A stretch of DNA of 64,000 nucleotides. It comes from an uncultured delta proteobacterium (GTDB lineage Bacteria > Desulfobacterota > RBG-13-43-22). Below are positions 5,024 to 49,011 of this stretch, one piece after another (the first letter of the stretch is position 1; each line of letters begins with the position of its first letter). The notes below the pieces were generated by a model that was given only the letters and a program-made list of their open reading frames with translations, was not told the origin of the DNA and made no database searches. The stretch is taken from contig CAWDKY010000032.1 in NCBI GenBank assembly GCA_963802945.1, forward strand, positions 64,001 through 128,000. Reading direction: 5' to 3'. The position numbers and the translations under genes were made by a program.

Positions 5024-5776
5024 TTAGGGGCGGTTGATCAGGTTGGCCAGGTACCCGGCCCCAAAGCCGTTGTCTATATTGACCACGGCCACGCCCGAGG
5101 CGCAGGAATTGAGCATCCCGAGCAGGGCGGCCAGGCCGTTGAAGCTGGCCCCGTAACCTATGCTGGTGGGAACGGCAATGACCGGACGTTCCACTAAGCC
5201 CCCCACTACGCTGGGCAGGGCCCCTTCCATCCCGGCCACCACAATCAAGACCGAAGCCGACAAGATCTTTTCCTGATTGGCCATCAGGCGGTGCAATCCG
5301 GAAATCCCTACGTCATATAGGTACTCCGTAGGATTGCCCATGATTTGGGCTGTAAGCATAGCTTCTTCGGCCACCGGCATATCGGATGTCCCGGCTGAAA
5401 TAACCAGGACCAGCCCACGGCCTGGCAATGTTTTAACCGGTTTGGAAAGACAGGTTAAGACCCTGGAAAGGGGATGATAGACAGCCTCGGGAAATCGCTT
5501 GCAAACTAGAGCGGCCTTTTGAGCATCCAGCCGGGTGACCAGGATGTTTTCCTTGTTTTTTTTCATCCGACCCATGATTTCTATGATCTGTTTGGCTGTC
5601 TTCCCTTCGCCGAAAATGACTTCCGGAAATCCCTGGCGCAAAGAACGATGGTGGTCGATTCGGGCAAAGTCAATATCTTCAAAAGGAAGGTATTTCATTT
5701 TTTTCACGGCCTGATCAACAGACACCTTTCCATTCTTGACCTGGTTTAAGAGTTCTTTTAAACGGTCCGGATTCAT
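5024..5776 (-). CDS. larB: Nickel-pincer cofactor biosynthesis protein LarB (PurE-like)
   Basis: DHHRSLRQGFPEVIFG, AGTSD, AGMEGALPSVVGGL, VVNIDNGFGA. Confidence 0.9.
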   Translation of the reverse strand: MNPDRLKELLNQVKNGKVSVDQAVKKMKYLPFEDIDFARIDHHRSLRQGFPEVIFGEGKTAKQIIEIMGRMKKNKENILVTRLDAQKAALVCKRFPEAVYHPLSRVLTCLSKPVKTLPGRGLVLVISAGTSDMPVAEEAMLTAQIMGNPTEYLYDVGISGLHRLMANQEKILSASVLIVVAGMEGALPSVVGGLVERPVIAVPTSIGYGASFNGLAALLGMLNSCASGVAVVNIDNGFGAGYLANLINRP

Positions 5777-43248: not shown

Positions 43249-44100
43249 ATGACATCATGGGAGGAAACACCGCTTGGTAGGCTTACAAGCCATATGCATA
43301 ACCTTTTTGAAGAATACTTTAAGAAGCATCCCCAAAGAGACCACAGTCAGGACAATGCTCTCCTCGAGGTCCGCAATCTTGTTCTTCAATCTGTTGAAAT
43401 TTTTCTTAAAGAGTCCAGCATTCATAAGCAGTATGGCGTGCCGATTGACTCCTTAAGTCTAGTCTCTTTTGCTTCCGATGATGAACCCGTCAATCCTCAA
43501 AGTTCCTGGATACCCATTCCAGGCGGTGAGGATAAGAAACGTCCCGCCGGGATCACAAATGAGGAGTTTACAGAATTCTCTGACCGCCTTAGTAAGCTCT
43601 TTATCGATCACGGAATGTATACATCGGGTCTTTTCGTTAATGTGCTTAACCTTTTCCGCGACGCGTACTTAAGGCCTGCAGAGAACAGACCCTTCAGGCA
43701 AGGCACATACACAAGGCTTATATTCGGCAACATAGTTTACAATGAAACAATCAAACAACAGGCTGTACCCTGTGAGGTATGTGGAGAGAATAGGGTTGTC
43801 GATATTTGCCATATCATCCCGAGGAGAATCAAGGGCACACAGAAGATTGATAATGTTCTCTTCCTGTGTCCGTCTCATCACCGCCTTTTTGATGCCTGCA
43901 TGTTGACTAAAGAGGAGTGGGATAAAGTACTTTGGACCAGGAAGTCACGCAAGTCACAGATTTACGCTGAGAAGGTTCTTAAAGTGGCACATGGGAAATT
44001 CTGGGAAAAAGTAGAAGCTGCCAATTACCAGAAGCAAACAACTTGGGAAATAGGGCTTCATGATCTCTACAAGTCGAACGAGAAAGACATCGATGAATGA
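43249..44100 (+). CDS. HNH endonuclease domain protein
   Basis: CEVCG...CHIIPR...DNVLFLCPSHHRLFD; GGAGG RBS. Confidence 0.82.
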   Translation: MTSWEETPLGRLTSHMHNLFEEYFKKHPQRDHSQDNALLEVRNLVLQSVEIFLKESSIHKQYGVPIDSLSLVSFASDDEPVNPQSSWIPIPGGEDKKRPAGITNEEFTEFSDRLSKLFIDHGMYTSGLFVNVLNLFRDAYLRPAENRPFRQGTYTRLIFGNIVYNETIKQQAVPCEVCGENRVVDICHIIPRRIKGTQKIDNVLFLCPSHHRLFDACMLTKEEWDKVLWTRKSRKSQIYAEKVLKVAHGKFWEKVEAANYQKQTTWEIGLHDLYKSNEKDIDE

Positions 44101-44276
44101 TCTTGTCTATATCCCGATAAAAAGAATAAAGGGGACAAACAGGAAATCAAAATAATTAAGAAAGCAACGTATAATAAAAGCATTGTGCTGACAGGGGATA
44201 AGCCCGTTTTGTTTTTGCAAAAGCCGATTGACCCGTGCGGCTGATTCCCCTCGTTCGGCACAGAAGAAGACAGGCT

Positions 44277-45047
44277 ATGGAACCTAAGCTATCCACGATC
44301 AAGAGACTGTTCGCTCTTTCGGGCAATCAATGCGCATTCCAAGGATGCTCTGCTCCCATTGTTGAGGGTAGCGGCTCGATAACAGGTGTTGTGTGCCACA
44401 TCTGCGCACGAAGTCCTGGCGGACCTCGCTACTACCCCATGCAAACCGATGAGGATCGACACGGATTCGAGAATCTTGTCTTGATGTGTGCCCGACACAG
44501 CAAACTCATAGACAATGAGCCGGAGCGGTACTCACCAAAATTTTTGCGAGACATGAAGACCATGCACGAAAAAGGTGGGTCGATAGAATTGTCAGCATTA
44601 CAAGCTCATATGGCTACACTCCTTTGGGAAAACTACAAGTCAATTCACATCTCAGCTGGTGGCCATGTCATGGTCAACAGCCCAGGCGCAATACAAGCTG
44701 AAAAAGTCACTATCAAAACAAATCGAGCCAGCATCAGGCCTGCTCTTCGCGAAGGCACGATCGCTGCGGATCGCTCCAAACGAAATTACGTGAAACACCT
44801 CATCGACCAGTATAACAATTTTGCCTCAAAGCAACCGGGGCGGAAGTTTTCGTTCGTAGCGATTTATGCTGATATCAAGAAACGTTTCGGGGCGCATTGG
44901 GAAGAAAATGCTATTGAGAAATTTCCTGATATAGTGGCATACTTACAGCAACGAACTGACGGGACAAGGTTGGGAAGGATCAACCACGGAAAAGGCTATC
45001 CCAATTATTCGACATACGAAGAGTATAGGCGGAAATATCGGGAGTAA
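44277..45047 (+). CDS. Protein with N-terminal HNH-like domain
   Basis: KRLFALSGNQCAFQGC, CHICARSPGGPRY, ENLVLMCARHSKLID. Confidence 0.8.
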   Translation: MEPKLSTIKRLFALSGNQCAFQGCSAPIVEGSGSITGVVCHICARSPGGPRYYPMQTDEDRHGFENLVLMCARHSKLIDNEPERYSPKFLRDMKTMHEKGGSIELSALQAHMATLLWENYKSIHISAGGHVMVNSPGAIQAEKVTIKTNRASIRPALREGTIAADRSKRNYVKHLIDQYNNFASKQPGRKFSFVAIYADIKKRFGAHWEENAIEKFPDIVAYLQQRTDGTRLGRINHGKGYPNYSTYEEYRRKYRE

Positions 45048-45062
45048 TAAAGCGTAGAATAA

Positions 45063-45200
45063 GGTCAGGTTATTGGTCTCGATGTATTACTAAGACCTTA
45101 ATAAAAGATCCGTTTCTATTCTATTTATTTCAGAAGAGTTGGGTATGCTCAATAAAGGCCTGAAATGCGATTTGGCGTGTACGGATGTAAACAGGGACTT
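45063..45200 (+). repeat. Palindromic spacer R3 plus ~60-bp extension duplicated at 46008-46140
   Basis: ggtcaggttattggtctcgat...taataaaagatcc, then tatgctcaataaaggc...gatgtaaacaggg. Confidence 0.75.
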
Positions 45201-45355
45201 TATCCTTCCAAATGGCTTTGGGGACGCTGGTAAGAAAATAAATTATCAAAAGGAATATATGAGTTGTTTGCCGCATATCCCGAATGAGTTTCTTATTTAT
45301 TTATCAGCATCCCAATGTGTCTATAGATAGAAGCCGTTTTTTTAACAAACGGCAT

Positions 45356-45508
45356 TTATCCGTCATTTAGATTTTTCTTTTTGTCCTGCCCTTCAACCTG
45401 GCAGGAAGATTTAGACATTCAGCCCTGGATGCCGAATTTCGGAAAAACCCACCGATTCAGGGCATACCAACCGGCAATAATAATCAACAACCAGATAATT
45501 GTTTTCAT
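45356..45508 (-). CDS. 50-aa membrane peptide with in-frame UGA at codon 30 (candidate selenoprotein; not in ORF track)
   Basis: MKTIIWLLIIIAGWYALNRWVFPKFGIQG-U-MSKSSCQVEGQDKKKNLNDG*; hairpin UCCUGCC-AGGUUGAAG-GGCAGGA after UGA. Confidence 0.72.
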
Positions 45509-45549
45509 TTTCCATCCTTAATGAAACCTAAGAACTCACGGTTCTTAAA

Positions 45550-45768
45550 TTACGAAGCTCATGAAAATCCCGAAGAAGAGGGGCCGCAGGAAGAGGAAAA
45601 AGACGCCTCATTCCCCGACTGCTCCCCCGCCTTGGAAAACGCTGATAACAGTCGAATGACCTTTTCTCCTTTACAATAAGGGCATTGAACCGTTTTATCT
45701 TTTGAATTCAAGATTATTTTTTCAAAGGTTCGGGAACAATCAGAACATTGATATTCATAAATAGGCAT
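45550..45768 (-). CDS. FmdB-family zinc-ribbon protein, probable C-terminal Sec (…SCGPSSSGFS-U-AS*)
   Basis: MPIYEYQCSDC...CPYC; TGA GCT TCG TAA followed by hairpin UAAGAAC-CGUGA-GUUCUUA. Confidence 0.75.
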
Positions 45769-46007
45769 ATTCATCCTCCTTCCCGTTTTCGAAGAATATT
45801 TAATAAAATAATGATAAATCCCTTTTTGTCAAGGGTCGAATCATATTAAATGCTACCAAGATGGTAGTAAAATAGGGAACGTTGATTCATAATTACTGTT
45901 ACTGAGGGATGTAGATTCCATTCATCATAACTCTCAAGTTACTCCCTCCCCCTCCGTTCGTTTGAACAAGGGCTTGCCAATGGGATCAGGTCAAGAGTAA
46001 ATAACAG

Positions 46008-46140
46008 AATCAGGTCTTTTGTCTTGATCTTTTGCTAATACCAGAATAAAAGACCCTAATAGTTCACAACGGGAGAATTTGTTATGCTCAATAAAGGCTT
46101 AAAGTGCAATTTGGGGTGCACCGATGTAAACAGGGGCTTT
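46008..46140 (+). repeat. Palindromic spacer R4 plus duplicated extension
   Basis: tcaggtcttttgtcttgatcttttgctaataccagaataaaagaccc; tatgctcaataaaggc...gatgtaaacagggg. Confidence 0.75.
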
Positions 46141-46148
46141 ATAAACAA

Positions 46149-47186
46149 GGAGTCAGGGCTGCTCTTGATTCTTATTAATACTTTATGAAAAAGATTGGAA
46201 TATGTCCAGACCATTGAGAATAGAATACCCGGATGCCTGGTATTATGTCATGAATCGTGGGAGACCGAGAGAGGAAGTCTTCACCGGCCCAAAAGACTAC
46301 AGGCAATTTATTGAAGTCATAAATGAAACAGCGGGGATTTGGAAACTGCGGGTAGCGGCCTATGGTTTGATGCCCAATCATTATCACCTTTTAGTTCAGA
46401 CACCCCATGGCAACCTGTCCCGCTGTCTGCGCCACATCGATGGGGTGTATACCCAGAGATTCAATCGAGCCCACGGCACTAACGGGCCATTATTCCGGGG
46501 GCGCTACAAGTCGATTCTGGTCGAAGCCGACAGTTATTTGCTCCCTCTGGTAAGGTATATTCATCGGAATCCCTTGAGGGCCGGTTTGGCAAAAACAATG
46601 GCTAGGTATCCCTGGAGCAGTCACAAGGATTACTTGTCGAGTGCCGAAATGAACCGTTGGTTCAATAAAGCCTTTGTACTTTCCATGTTTTCTGGGAAAA
46701 AGCAAGAGAGGCTAAGGGATTATCGACGGTTTGTTTCCTTGAAAGATGAAGAGGAAATTATAGAGATTTTAGGGAGAAAGAAGTGGCCGTCGGTTTTAGG
46801 TTCGAGAGATTTTATCTATCGGATAAAAGAGAGGTTTTATTCGGGCCAGACAGATAATGAAGTACAACGGTCCAAGGCATTGGCTCCGAAGGTAAAGCAA
46901 ATCCAAGAAGCAATAGAAAAATTTTATAGGATCAGCAGGAAAGCTTTGATGTCTTCCCAACGGGGAGTTTTCAATGAACCGAGGAATATGGCCATTTATT
47001 TGACACGCCAGTTGAGAGGGGACAGTTTAAACCAGATCGGCCTGGATTTTCGTATGAACAATTACAGTTCGGCGAGCAGTGCAATTGAAAGAACCAAACG
47101 GTTGATGGCCGAGGACAGGAAGTTAAGAACAAAGGCAAAAAAACTCTTTTTTCAGTTGAGCAAGAGTCAAAAGCAGACTTGACTCC
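46149..47186 (+). mobile_element. RAYT-like element bounded by 25-bp inverted repeats
   Basis: GGAGTCAGGGCTGCTCTTGATTCTT vs reverse complement of right end GGAGTCAAGTCTGCTTTTGACTCTT (21/25). Confidence 0.75.
46202..47182 (+). CDS. HUH Y1 transposase (RAYT-like) with C-terminal DnaA-like HTH
   Basis: MSRPLRIEYP, LMPNHYHLL (HUH), YIHRNP, YPWSS; PRNMAIYL..SLNQIG. Confidence 0.9.
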   Translation: MSRPLRIEYPDAWYYVMNRGRPREEVFTGPKDYRQFIEVINETAGIWKLRVAAYGLMPNHYHLLVQTPHGNLSRCLRHIDGVYTQRFNRAHGTNGPLFRGRYKSILVEADSYLLPLVRYIHRNPLRAGLAKTMARYPWSSHKDYLSSAEMNRWFNKAFVLSMFSGKKQERLRDYRRFVSLKDEEEIIEILGRKKWPSVLGSRDFIYRIKERFYSGQTDNEVQRSKALAPKVKQIQEAIEKFYRISRKALMSSQRGVFNEPRNMAIYLTRQLRGDSLNQIGLDFRMNNYSSASSAIERTKRLMAEDRKLRTKAKKLFFQLSKSQKQT

Positions 47187-47540: not shown

Positions 47541-48806
47541 TTAGGCAGCCTTTTTGAGCACTCTCCTTTCGGGGGCCTGGTATTGTCCCACATAGTCGTT
47601 GTCGTCCCGAACGATGGCATGGATGATCCCTAAGAGCTTCCTCGATACGGCAATCAGCGCCCTCATCCTGCCCATGCCCCTGTCGGTCAGTCTGATATAA
47701 TACTCATACAGGATTCCATTCTTTCTTATCGTTTGGATAGCCGCATAGAACAGGATTTTTCTCAGAAGGCTCCGGCCCTTCTTGGATATCCTTCTCTGCC
47801 CTTTTCTTTTCCCCGAACTGATCTCGTAGAGGTCAAGCCCCGCCAGCTTCAGGATTTCGGACTGGGAACTGAACTTCGAAAAATCTCCCACCTCGCCAAT
47901 GAGACCGGCCACTGATACTATTCCCAGGCCTTTGATCGACAACAACCTGGAGCTAAAGGGTATCCGTTCGAGGGTGGATTCCATCTCGGCTTCTATCTCG
48001 GCCATAAAGCGCTTTTCAGCTTCAAGCTGTAGGAGGATATGCCGGATGTCCCTGACGATACCGGCCAGACCCTCTTGGATACCTACCGTCCCTTGTGCCA
48101 GGGCAATCAGAGACTCCGCATCTTGAAAACCGAACTTGCCCCGGCTCCGTTTCCACATCTCTTCCCCCAGCGCCTTCTTGGATAAGCTGCCTATCCTTTC
48201 AGGAGTGGTATATCTTTTCAGGAGGTACTGAGCCGTCTTGCCCCGGATTTCCTTCAACACGGTTTTGAATTCAGGGAAGATAAGGTAGACGAGCTGCTGG
48301 AGTTGATTGAGCAGTGCGGTCCGCTCTCCCACGTGCCGTTCCCGGGCGTGGGTCAACATCCTCAGATAGGCCGCATCCCCCTCGGGGACAATGATGGTCA
48401 AAGCCCTTCCTAGTCGGATGATATCCGCGATCACCCTCGGGTCCTTATCGTCCGTCTTCAACGGAGAGTTGTCATTGACTTCCTTCATCTTCTTCGTGTG
48501 CATGGGGTTGACCTGGACCATTTTGACCTGTTTATCCGCAAGATAATGGACCAGGGGTTCAGCATAGGGGCCTGTAGATTCATAGCCAACGAGCACCTCA
48601 TCACATCCAAAACGGTTCTTACTCGCTATAGTCATACCCCAAAACTTTTCGAATCCTTCCCGGGTGTTGCCAAACCTGAAAGTCTTGGTGCTTCTCCCGT
48701 CCATGGTTGTGCAATACCCTGTGTTGCTGGCTAAGCCTATATCCACCGTGGCAATCAGCGTGCCTTCCTTCACCGTTTTTACCCTTTTCGCCCTCAGTTC
48801 TCTCAT
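47541..48806 (-). CDS. IS110-family recombinase/transposase
   Basis: VDIG, ESTGPY, KTDDKD (DEDD); SSGKRKG..ISKKG; AGGAGG RBS. Confidence 0.93.
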   Translation of the reverse strand: MRELRAKRVKTVKEGTLIATVDIGLASNTGYCTTMDGRSTKTFRFGNTREGFEKFWGMTIASKNRFGCDEVLVGYESTGPYAEPLVHYLADKQVKMVQVNPMHTKKMKEVNDNSPLKTDDKDPRVIADIIRLGRALTIIVPEGDAAYLRMLTHARERHVGERTALLNQLQQLVYLIFPEFKTVLKEIRGKTAQYLLKRYTTPERIGSLSKKALGEEMWKRSRGKFGFQDAESLIALAQGTVGIQEGLAGIVRDIRHILLQLEAEKRFMAEIEAEMESTLERIPFSSRLLSIKGLGIVSVAGLIGEVGDFSKFSSQSEILKLAGLDLYEISSGKRKGQRRISKKGRSLLRKILFYAAIQTIRKNGILYEYYIRLTDRGMGRMRALIAVSRKLLGIIHAIVRDDNDYVGQYQAPERRVLKKAA

Positions 48807-49011
48807 TGTCATCTCCTCCTTGTTTCCTAATCGGAATAAACAGCTCCAGAAAAGGAGGATATCCTTACTTCTTGTTCCCCTCAATCATGAACTACAATAT
48901 AGCAAGCTGAACTCGTGATTTTCTAAGATCCTCCTTCCATGCAACCTTCGATTAGTAATCAATAATTCTTGTATCAGCGGACAGTAAGAATATTTTTTCA
49001 AAAAATAAAGC

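Follow-up and report, generated by a model that had tools for sequence, protein, structure and literature searches.

The window analysed here, a stretch of 64,000 nucleotides (nt) from an uncultured delta proteobacterium (contig CAWDKY010000032.1, positions 64,001 to 128,000), carries on its minus strand at 45356-45508 a 50-codon gene which we regard, with a probability of roughly 85%, as encoding a genuine selenoprotein, that is, a one-helix membrane protein whose synthesis would proceed by recoding of an internal UGA codon via SelB and a selenocysteine insertion sequence (SECIS). Sequence comparison establishes the gene, its recoding signature, the family to which it belongs and its linkage to other genes, and judged by the same comparison the internal TGA almost certainly encodes selenocysteine (Sec, U). 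The peptide constitutes a new, undescribed protein family with an ordinary decoding mechanism. The elements of the gene are located as follows.

45356..45508, minus strand: predicted gene for a small membrane selenoprotein, with 50 codons and a TAA stop, from direct reading, with the same layout in 20 relatives and an open, codon-like frame after the UGA
45419..45421, minus strand: in-frame UGA, predicted Sec at residue 30, from comparison of the column across homologs
45401..45403, minus strand: codon TGC of Cys36, the putative Sec partner in U-x5-C, in a column invariant in alignment A1
45384..45406, minus strand: SECIS-type hairpin within the coding sequence (codons 35-42), 7-bp stem and 9-nt loop AGGUUGAAG, from folding and covariation
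45511..45519, minus strand: Shine-Dalgarno-like AAGGAUGGA, 6 nt 5' of the ATG, from sequence
45333..45353, minus strand: terminator-like hairpin GCCGTTT/AAACGGC with a T-rich tail, 2 nt past the TAA

Reading the minus strand from the ATG at 45508-45506 to the final TAA at 45358-45356 gives MKTIIWLLIIIAGWYALNRWVFPKFGIQG-UGA-MSKSSCQVEGQDKKKNLNDG-TAA. An N-terminal hydrophobic transmembrane helix (residues 3-17) precedes the stretch RWVFPKFGIQG-U-MSKSSC, and the chain ends in a charged tail; six Lys/Arg residues are present in the tail after the helix versus one before it. The motif AAGGA at 45519-45515 lies 6 nt ahead of the ATG, and AAGGA or GGAGG-like motifs are present at the equivalent site 5' of the peptide gene in relatives, while the terminator-like hairpin sits behind the TAA of the extended open reading frame (ORF) and not behind the UGA. 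An initial annotation made from the letters alone had proposed a membrane-anchored mini-selenoprotein with a U-x5-C motif and a SECIS-like hairpin. The ORF, the helix, the TGA, the spacing and the hairpin were all found where it had placed them, all on the minus strand, and the perfect 7-bp stem UCCUGCC/GGCAGGA with a loop starting 19 nt past the UGA was likewise borne out.

Searching 41 related genomes in six frames returned 21 significant matches, in each of which one in-frame TGA occupies the corresponding position and similarity runs on to residues 41-49. In alignment A1, comprising 20 sequences, M1, P23, G26, U30 and C36 are invariant, and the Ser-Cys after the TGA is invariant or nearly so among homologs. 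From a phylum sample of 301 genomes, 138 were matched at a threshold of E ≤ 1e-4, with TGA at the column in 142 of the 143 matches and TAA in one, and in a sample of 201 Planctomycetota genomes, 21 were matched with TGA in 22 of 22 matches. All 80 loci from a scan with one genome per species also bear TGA at the column (79 evaluated by script; L098 was left unparsed, its frame halting there). According to record titles, these loci belong mostly to Deltaproteobacteria/Thermodesulfobacteriota, the other taxa being Verrucomicrobiota, Spirochaetota/Leptospirales, Planctomycetota, Acidobacteriota, KSB1, Bacteroidota (Cytophagia) and Bacteriovoracaceae. Coding beyond the TGA is apparent from the 142 unique Sec forms, 99% of which keep frame 0 open for at least 12 codons versus 60% and 63% for the other frames, and from the pairwise differences at first, second and third codon positions among the 17 closest sequences (0.242/0.154/0.409 after the UGA and 0.313/0.099/0.514 before it), the order third > first > second being the same on both sides. 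Hence, the proposal that homologs are conserved in frame past the TGA and do not replace it by TAA or TAG held up, apart from the single TAA in the phylum sample. In the 142 unique Sec forms, the Cys past U stands at +5 in 117, at +6 in 23 (the type of the window peptide) and at +7 in 2, so that U-x5-C applies to the window peptide but not as a rule for the family, in which U-x4-C is usual (117/142).

Besides the Sec forms, relatives with Cys at the Sec column were found. A profile of A1 was compared with 1.84 billion representative proteins, yielding 632 proteins at E ≤ 0.001, and among the best 150 of these, in which residues were scored, the column is occupied by Cys in 86, W in 22, R in 3, G in 2, L in 2 and E in 1, and 34 sequences end exactly there. 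The 86 Cys relatives are full-length with the typical motif LP-x-x-G-x-P-T-C-M-S-G-A-C. They share with the peptide the N-terminal helix, followed by LP-x-x-G-x-x-T and a Cys pair, but differ in having Cys for Sec, mostly C-x4-C spacing and mostly no SECIS-type hairpin. Trp, Gly, Arg and Leu at the Sec column are probably due to TGA being translated under another genetic code by some source pipelines, for the W forms in line with a 30-residue stub that one W-form cluster also holds. A metagenome scan with a narrower alignment of Cys forms as query returned Sec and Cys loci alike, 32 unique sequences having the Cys codon TGC or TGT at the column; most of the genomic copies found are Sec forms, and the Cys forms (T-C-M-S-G-A-C) are a minority. 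Named Cys relatives, such as MBS0205901.1 (Planctomycetota), MGQ9915370.1 (Thermogutta sp.) and WP_078683970.1 (Desulfobaculum bizertense), are all annotated as 'hypothetical protein', and an ESM Atlas look-up of one Cys form led to an unnamed 'hypothetical protein' cluster at 0.89 only. Scanning the peptide against Pfam-A and NCBIfam 20.0 gave no family at E ≤ 10, so that the comparison with NCBIfam selenoprotein models suggested in the initial annotation returned no matching model, and for 20 relatives (19 Cys forms and one W form) no model of either collection scored above its cut-off, with a single chance-level NCBIfam match (E 0.11) and Pfam matches that were all below the cut-offs. As had been foreseen, gene callers miss the complete frame: public protein sets hold just stubs of close relatives, with 29 residues for the match to the U-to-C peptide and 30 residues for the copy of Desulforhabdus sp. 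TSK.

The hairpin following the UGA is formed by pairing of UCCUGCC (45406-45400) with GGCAGGA (45390-45384). In a set of 21 aligned sequences covering the UGA to +45, 88.6% of the stem cells are paired, whereas shifting the 3' partner by 1-3 columns lowers this share to 37-54%. Both sides have changed in four of the seven stem pairs, none of 500 shuffles reaches the observed pairing or covariation score, and RNAalifold, unprompted, proposed the same seven pairs; the covariation expected from a functional stem was thus found. A compensated and synonymous C-G to U-A exchange distinguishes the window copy (UCCUGCC/GGCAGGA) from the second copy in the genome (UCUUGCC/GGCAAGA), and distant family members have stems of very different sequence at the same location. 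Over nt +8 to +50, mean z relative to 100 dinucleotide shuffles was -1.16 for Sec forms (n = 141) versus +0.26 for Cys forms (n = 32), with a Mann-Whitney p of 1e-9 for sequences that are related and not independent. When defining a hairpin by at least 5 contiguous pairs and a loop of 3-10 nt starting 15-29 nt past the UGA, it was present in 109 of 141 Sec forms versus 7 of 32 Cys forms, and 107 of the 109 hairpin-bearing Sec forms show G at loop position 1 or 2. Matches to Rfam in the region 45200-46000, searched at E ≤ 10, were no better than chance. A rho-independent terminator was considered for the hairpin at 45384..45406 and dismissed, since a U-tract is absent and the gene has its own terminator behind the TAA. 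With the bacterial SECIS-dependent genes, for which fdhF is the textbook example, the peptide gene has in common the in-frame UGA with stem-loop, the pairs of Sec and Cys homologs and, apart from a selB that is frameshifted in this assembly, the sel genes of the host. In section 5 of PMC13188914, the bacterial SECIS consensus is given as a stem-loop with a small apical loop 16-37 nt past the UGA and a G in the first two loop positions, and the hairpins of the peptide genes match it. Recoding of the UGA would be SelB/SECIS-dependent and directed by the 7-bp hairpin in codons 35-42, giving rise to the juxtamembrane motif NRW-x-x-P-K-x-G-x-x-x-U-x5-C.

The host genome encodes SelA (627 bits), tRNA-Sec (74 bits) and, by a selD with in-frame TGA, a Sec-containing selenophosphate synthetase (L221, G000:C17:415477-416388), as well as SelB (266 bits, N-terminal part). 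The initial annotation had made its proposal depend on a host with selABCD, and this is substantiated for selA, tRNA-Sec and selD, whereas selB is present but with three 1-nt insertions. An alternative genetic code was considered and dismissed, TGA being among the ORF stops of the window and tRNA-Sec and SelA being present. Several observations nevertheless weigh against a selenoprotein encoded at 45356-45508. The single-sequence fold of the hairpin is unremarkable (-14.5 kcal/mol, z = -1.57, equalled by 12 of 200 shuffles), and the SECIS-like character claimed for it is upheld by covariation, RNAalifold and the contrast to the Cys forms but not by significance of the individual fold. The sequences in all family counts are related, and p-values overstate. 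The copy in the window has probably been acquired or relocated as a second one, possibly recently since it sits among mobile-element genes. Finally, selB is spread over three frames (L001, G000:C30:178705-182334), the three insertions being evident from comparison with the intact genes of two congeners. Hence, the family might be real while the copy in this genome is not expressed as a selenoprotein, SelB being inactivated in a decaying Sec system. In line with such a loss, two of the three insertions are outside long homopolymers, 11 of the 13 other genomes examined from the genus have an uninterrupted selB across model positions 1-580, and rpoB is intact in this genome. However, rpoC likewise reads as two ORFs (1127 and 318 residues; L225, G000:C14:74400-78700) that overlap in different frames, which cannot be genuine in an essential gene and indicates that the assembly holds indel errors. 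Moreover, selA, tRNA-Sec and the UGA-containing selD are intact, and in the two module copies the frames are still open and the stems still pair. The selB frameshifts are likely an assembly error and the decay of the Sec system is improbable, but a small chance of a truly broken SelB has to be retained because three insertions in 1.9 kb are denser than the one frameshift in about 8 kb of rpoBC.

Two further explanations do without a functional Sec-containing product. If the UGA were a true stop, a 29-residue membrane peptide would result and the hairpin would be a transcriptional or translational control element, in agreement with gene callers and databases, with the 34 of the best 150 representatives that end at the column, with searches finding stubs only and with a hairpin not significant in a single sequence. 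This is hardly credible in view of a frame and a codon-position pattern that persist past the UGA, the invariant Cys 5-7 residues on, homologs with a Cys codon at exactly the UGA column and TAA or TAG in just 1 of 143 phylum matches; the hairpin, in addition, lacks a U-tract, a separate terminator follows the TAA, and Cys forms mostly have no hairpin. Similarly, the small ORF might be a regulatory leader in which the efficiency of Sec insertion reports selenium and tunes neighbouring genes, the peptide itself having no job. A very short ORF with a single UGA in small operons would suit such a device, but conservation of the amino acids across phyla is strong before as well as after the UGA and the Cys forms keep the same protein, and the window copy is the last gene before the terminator, leaving nothing downstream to regulate, so that also this role is highly improbable. 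By contrast, the membrane-anchored mini-selenoprotein of the initial annotation is supported by the TGA column, the coding past the UGA and the Cys homologs.

Directly upstream of the peptide gene, a second candidate selenoprotein gene is present, which the initial annotation had overlooked.

45550..45774, minus strand: FmdB-family zinc-ribbon gene (TIGR02605/PF09723), relatives of which start at the ATG at 45768
45529..45547, minus strand: candidate SECIS for the FmdB UGA, UAAGAAC-CGUGA-GUUCUUA, just past the FmdB stop, with a UGA-to-loop distance of 18 nt
45805..45832, minus strand: weak sigma-70-like promoter match TTGACA-16-TATTTT, 5' of the FmdB gene

The FmdB gene scores 56 bits with TIGR02605 (cut-off 31.3) and 52.3 bits with PF09723 (cut-off 34.4) and encodes an N-terminal pair of CxxC motifs, the four ribbon cysteines being kept as Cys. 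It ends with CGPSSSGFS, followed by UGA (45561-45559), Ala-Ser (GCT TCG) and TAA (45552-45550), and if the UGA is recoded, the encoded tail would be Cys-x8-Sec-Ala-Ser with Sec as the third-last residue. The same is seen in 30 unique FmdB neighbours from several phyla, all ending with GF[STGK]-U, then one or two codons and a stop, with the four ribbon cysteines, F68 and the U column invariant. Soon after the UGA, a hairpin is present in 30 of 30 unique genes of this FmdB-U type, with differing stem sequences. Database homologs of FmdB stop at GF[SG] in all 13 inspected of the 20 found, and a C-terminal-type FmdB with Cys instead of Sec was not found among them; the claim for FmdB is for this reason weaker than that for the peptide. 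The FmdB gene product is probably a second selenoprotein, as far as can be deduced from sequence, with its SECIS behind the stop codon, and as this gene too ends in UGA with a hairpin of its own, the locus may be considered a two-selenoprotein module. The terminator-like hairpin at 45333..45353 closes this FmdB-peptide two-gene unit, and peptide and FmdB genes would be co-transcribed, with the FmdB UGA decoded through the post-stop hairpin. The count of sigma-70-like matches in the region, including the one 5' of the FmdB gene, is no higher than in shuffled sequences.

FmdB selenoproteins have already been predicted from the Global Ocean Sampling data, where Sec replaces a Cys of the zinc ribbon (CxxU; 2 sequences; PMC2398784). 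The window FmdB belongs to the same TIGR02605/PF09723 family, which had already been listed as containing selenoproteins, but differs from the ocean proteins by its UGA as third-last codon (GFS-U-A-S), the hairpin past the stop and the retained ribbon cysteines; the membrane peptide itself does not belong to the FmdB family. In having Sec two to three residues ahead of its stop codon, the window FmdB resembles the UXX-star and KCU-star selenoproteins (NF041114, NF041211 and NF033934, as given in Table 1 of PMC13188914), and a Sec in such a position implies that the SECIS of FmdB must sit past the stop. However, the fold of UXX-star and KCU-star proteins is different, and the NCBIfam scan of the FmdB neighbour gave TIGR02605 and not these models.

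For indications of function, the neighbourhoods of 173 unique loci were surveyed with up to two ORFs per side, the neighbours being clustered and named by Pfam, and FmdB linkage was scored as a same-strand gene within the fetched flanks of about 2.5 kb. An FmdB gene ending in GF[STGK]-U accompanies about 34 of the 142 unique Sec-form loci on the same strand, in several phyla. Recurrent neighbours are Rhodanese with YgaP-like_TM (18 loci), DUF302 (17), ArsR HTH_5 (16), Thioredoxin (15) and zf-HC2 anti-sigma (8). The DUF302, YgaP-like rhodanese, thioredoxin, ArsR and zf-HC2 genes often share the strand of the peptide gene and are separated from it by -4 to +35 nt. In total, at least one named neighbour or FmdB is found at 74 of 142 Sec-form and 19 of 31 Cys-form loci. 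The redox or metal-binding role put forward in the initial annotation may well apply, and these neighbourhoods fit it.

According to the positive-inside rule, the U...C tail would be at the cytoplasmic face of the membrane, a placement deduced from the six Lys/Arg residues after the helix versus one before it and from partners of cytoplasmic type. There, the Sec/Cys pair might cycle between selenol/thiol and selenenylsulfide, or else carry an atom of sulfur, selenium or a soft metal. Its partners would be soluble thiol proteins, which could be FmdB-Sec in this lineage and, in other lineages, YgaP-like rhodanese, DUF302 and thioredoxin. Judging from the neighbours, a membrane-tethered selenol/thiol pair exchanging a selenenylsulfide or a S/Se atom with soluble thiol proteins is slightly favoured as the function of the peptide. 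A more specific version, in which peptide and FmdB protein are the halves of an undescribed selenol relay, with the Sec/Cys pair exchanging with the Cys-x8-Sec tail, can be put forward only tentatively, and the same holds for the corresponding exchange with YgaP-type rhodanese, DUF302 and thioredoxin in other lineages. At odds with such functions, an FmdB neighbour was present at none of 32 Cys-form loci, and within two ORFs a named neighbour is missing at 68 of 142 Sec-form and 12 of 31 Cys-form loci. The main alternative would be a membrane ligand for soft metals or metalloids (Hg, As, Cd, Cu, Ni, organotin) in which Sec/Cys pairs chelate the metal and hand it on. Regulators of the ArsR family adjoin 16 unique Sec-form loci, at 5 of them together with NikR, and the U-x4/5-C spacing might suit bidentate binding. 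On the other hand, the genes coupled most closely to that of the peptide (-4 to +35 nt) encode DUF302, YgaP-like rhodanese and thioredoxin, a coupling which points to sulfur and thiol chemistry, and a metal transporter or reductase does not recur among the clustered neighbours. In addition, persulfide or redox signals are among those to which ArsR-family proteins respond, which likewise speaks against a metal ligand. Consequently, the soft-metal role appears rather unlikely and ranks behind the thiol exchange.

Individual loci show further arrangements. At five loci of Desulfomonile-like metagenome-assembled genomes (L088, L100, L107, L116 and L117), a 447-residue protein without Pfam match, the peptide, ArsR and NikR are encoded in fixed order. 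A Cys-rich protein of 98 residues, also without Pfam match, is encoded directly 3' of the peptide gene in 6 loci (L085, 1621-1914, and five others). At a locus of a Pirellulales metagenome-assembled genome (L111), from about position 2501, the peptide frame continues stop-free into a thioredoxin-like sequence (WCGPC), and this run-on may be a fusion or due to a missing stop.

With regard to known systems, the peptide resembles the FeoB-associated Cys-rich membrane protein (PF12669), which is tiny and has one N-terminal helix and a short cysteine motif, but it is not a member of this family, as Pfam gave no match at E ≤ 10 and the motif differs. Another likeness exists to YgaV/YgaP of E. coli, an ArsR-type regulator and a membrane-anchored rhodanese, in that the peptide gene often abuts Rhodanese with YgaP-like_TM (18 loci) or ArsR (16 loci); here, the peptide would be an extra component not described for ygaVP, and in the window neither of the two genes is adjacent. 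The peptide fits none of the 119 families and subfamilies in Table 1 of PMC13188914. In the literature on selenoproteins, FmdB, small and transmembrane selenoproteins and groundwater selenoproteomes, covered incompletely, which could bear on novelty, the peptide was not found described, and in the accessible text of the deep-Sep paper neither 'membrane' nor 'zinc ribbon' occurs.

Annotated genes are the basis on which selenoproteomes are counted, and gene callers overlook this family since only 29 residues are encoded ahead of the UGA. If real, an uncounted selenoprotein would be encoded in nearly half of the sampled genomes of the phylum and in members of at least six other phyla. If also the relay is true, it would represent a common, overlooked route of anaerobes for reactive sulfur or selenium and, with 138 of 301 sampled genomes, the peptide would be among the most frequent selenoproteins of Desulfobacterota. 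Besides, the family with more than 140 Sec forms and Cys forms as controls is a natural data set for the SECIS rules of very short genes, the FmdB partner would provide a case of a SECIS located past the stop codon, and the tight, recurrent linkage to rhodanese, DUF302, thioredoxin and ArsR makes several domains of unknown function accessible to testing together.

The module occurs twice in the genome. The second peptide gene, on another contig (G000:C15; L038, 5460-5317, minus strand), is 81% identical to the window copy, and the tRNA-Sec gene is about 5 kb away; the complete FmdB-peptide module is at 5317-5721 (minus strand). Its context is common to relatives and comprises YkuD, FmdB, peptide, DUF4390 and a HAMP/PAS histidine kinase. 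In the window, the module is bracketed by direct repeats of about 140 nt (45065-45203 and 46010-46142), which are 73% identical overall by BLAST, with two parts at 77% and 84%, and for which only these two copies are present in the genome. The module adjoins a gene for an IS200-like Y1 transposase/DnaA_C protein (46202-47182), an IS110 transposase gene (47541-48884, minus strand) and an HNH gene. Just upstream of the repeat-bracketed module, two adjacent plus-strand genes encode proteins with Cys/His-rich motifs, one of 283 residues with an HNH_2 domain (43249-44100) and one of 270 residues without Pfam match (44235-45047).

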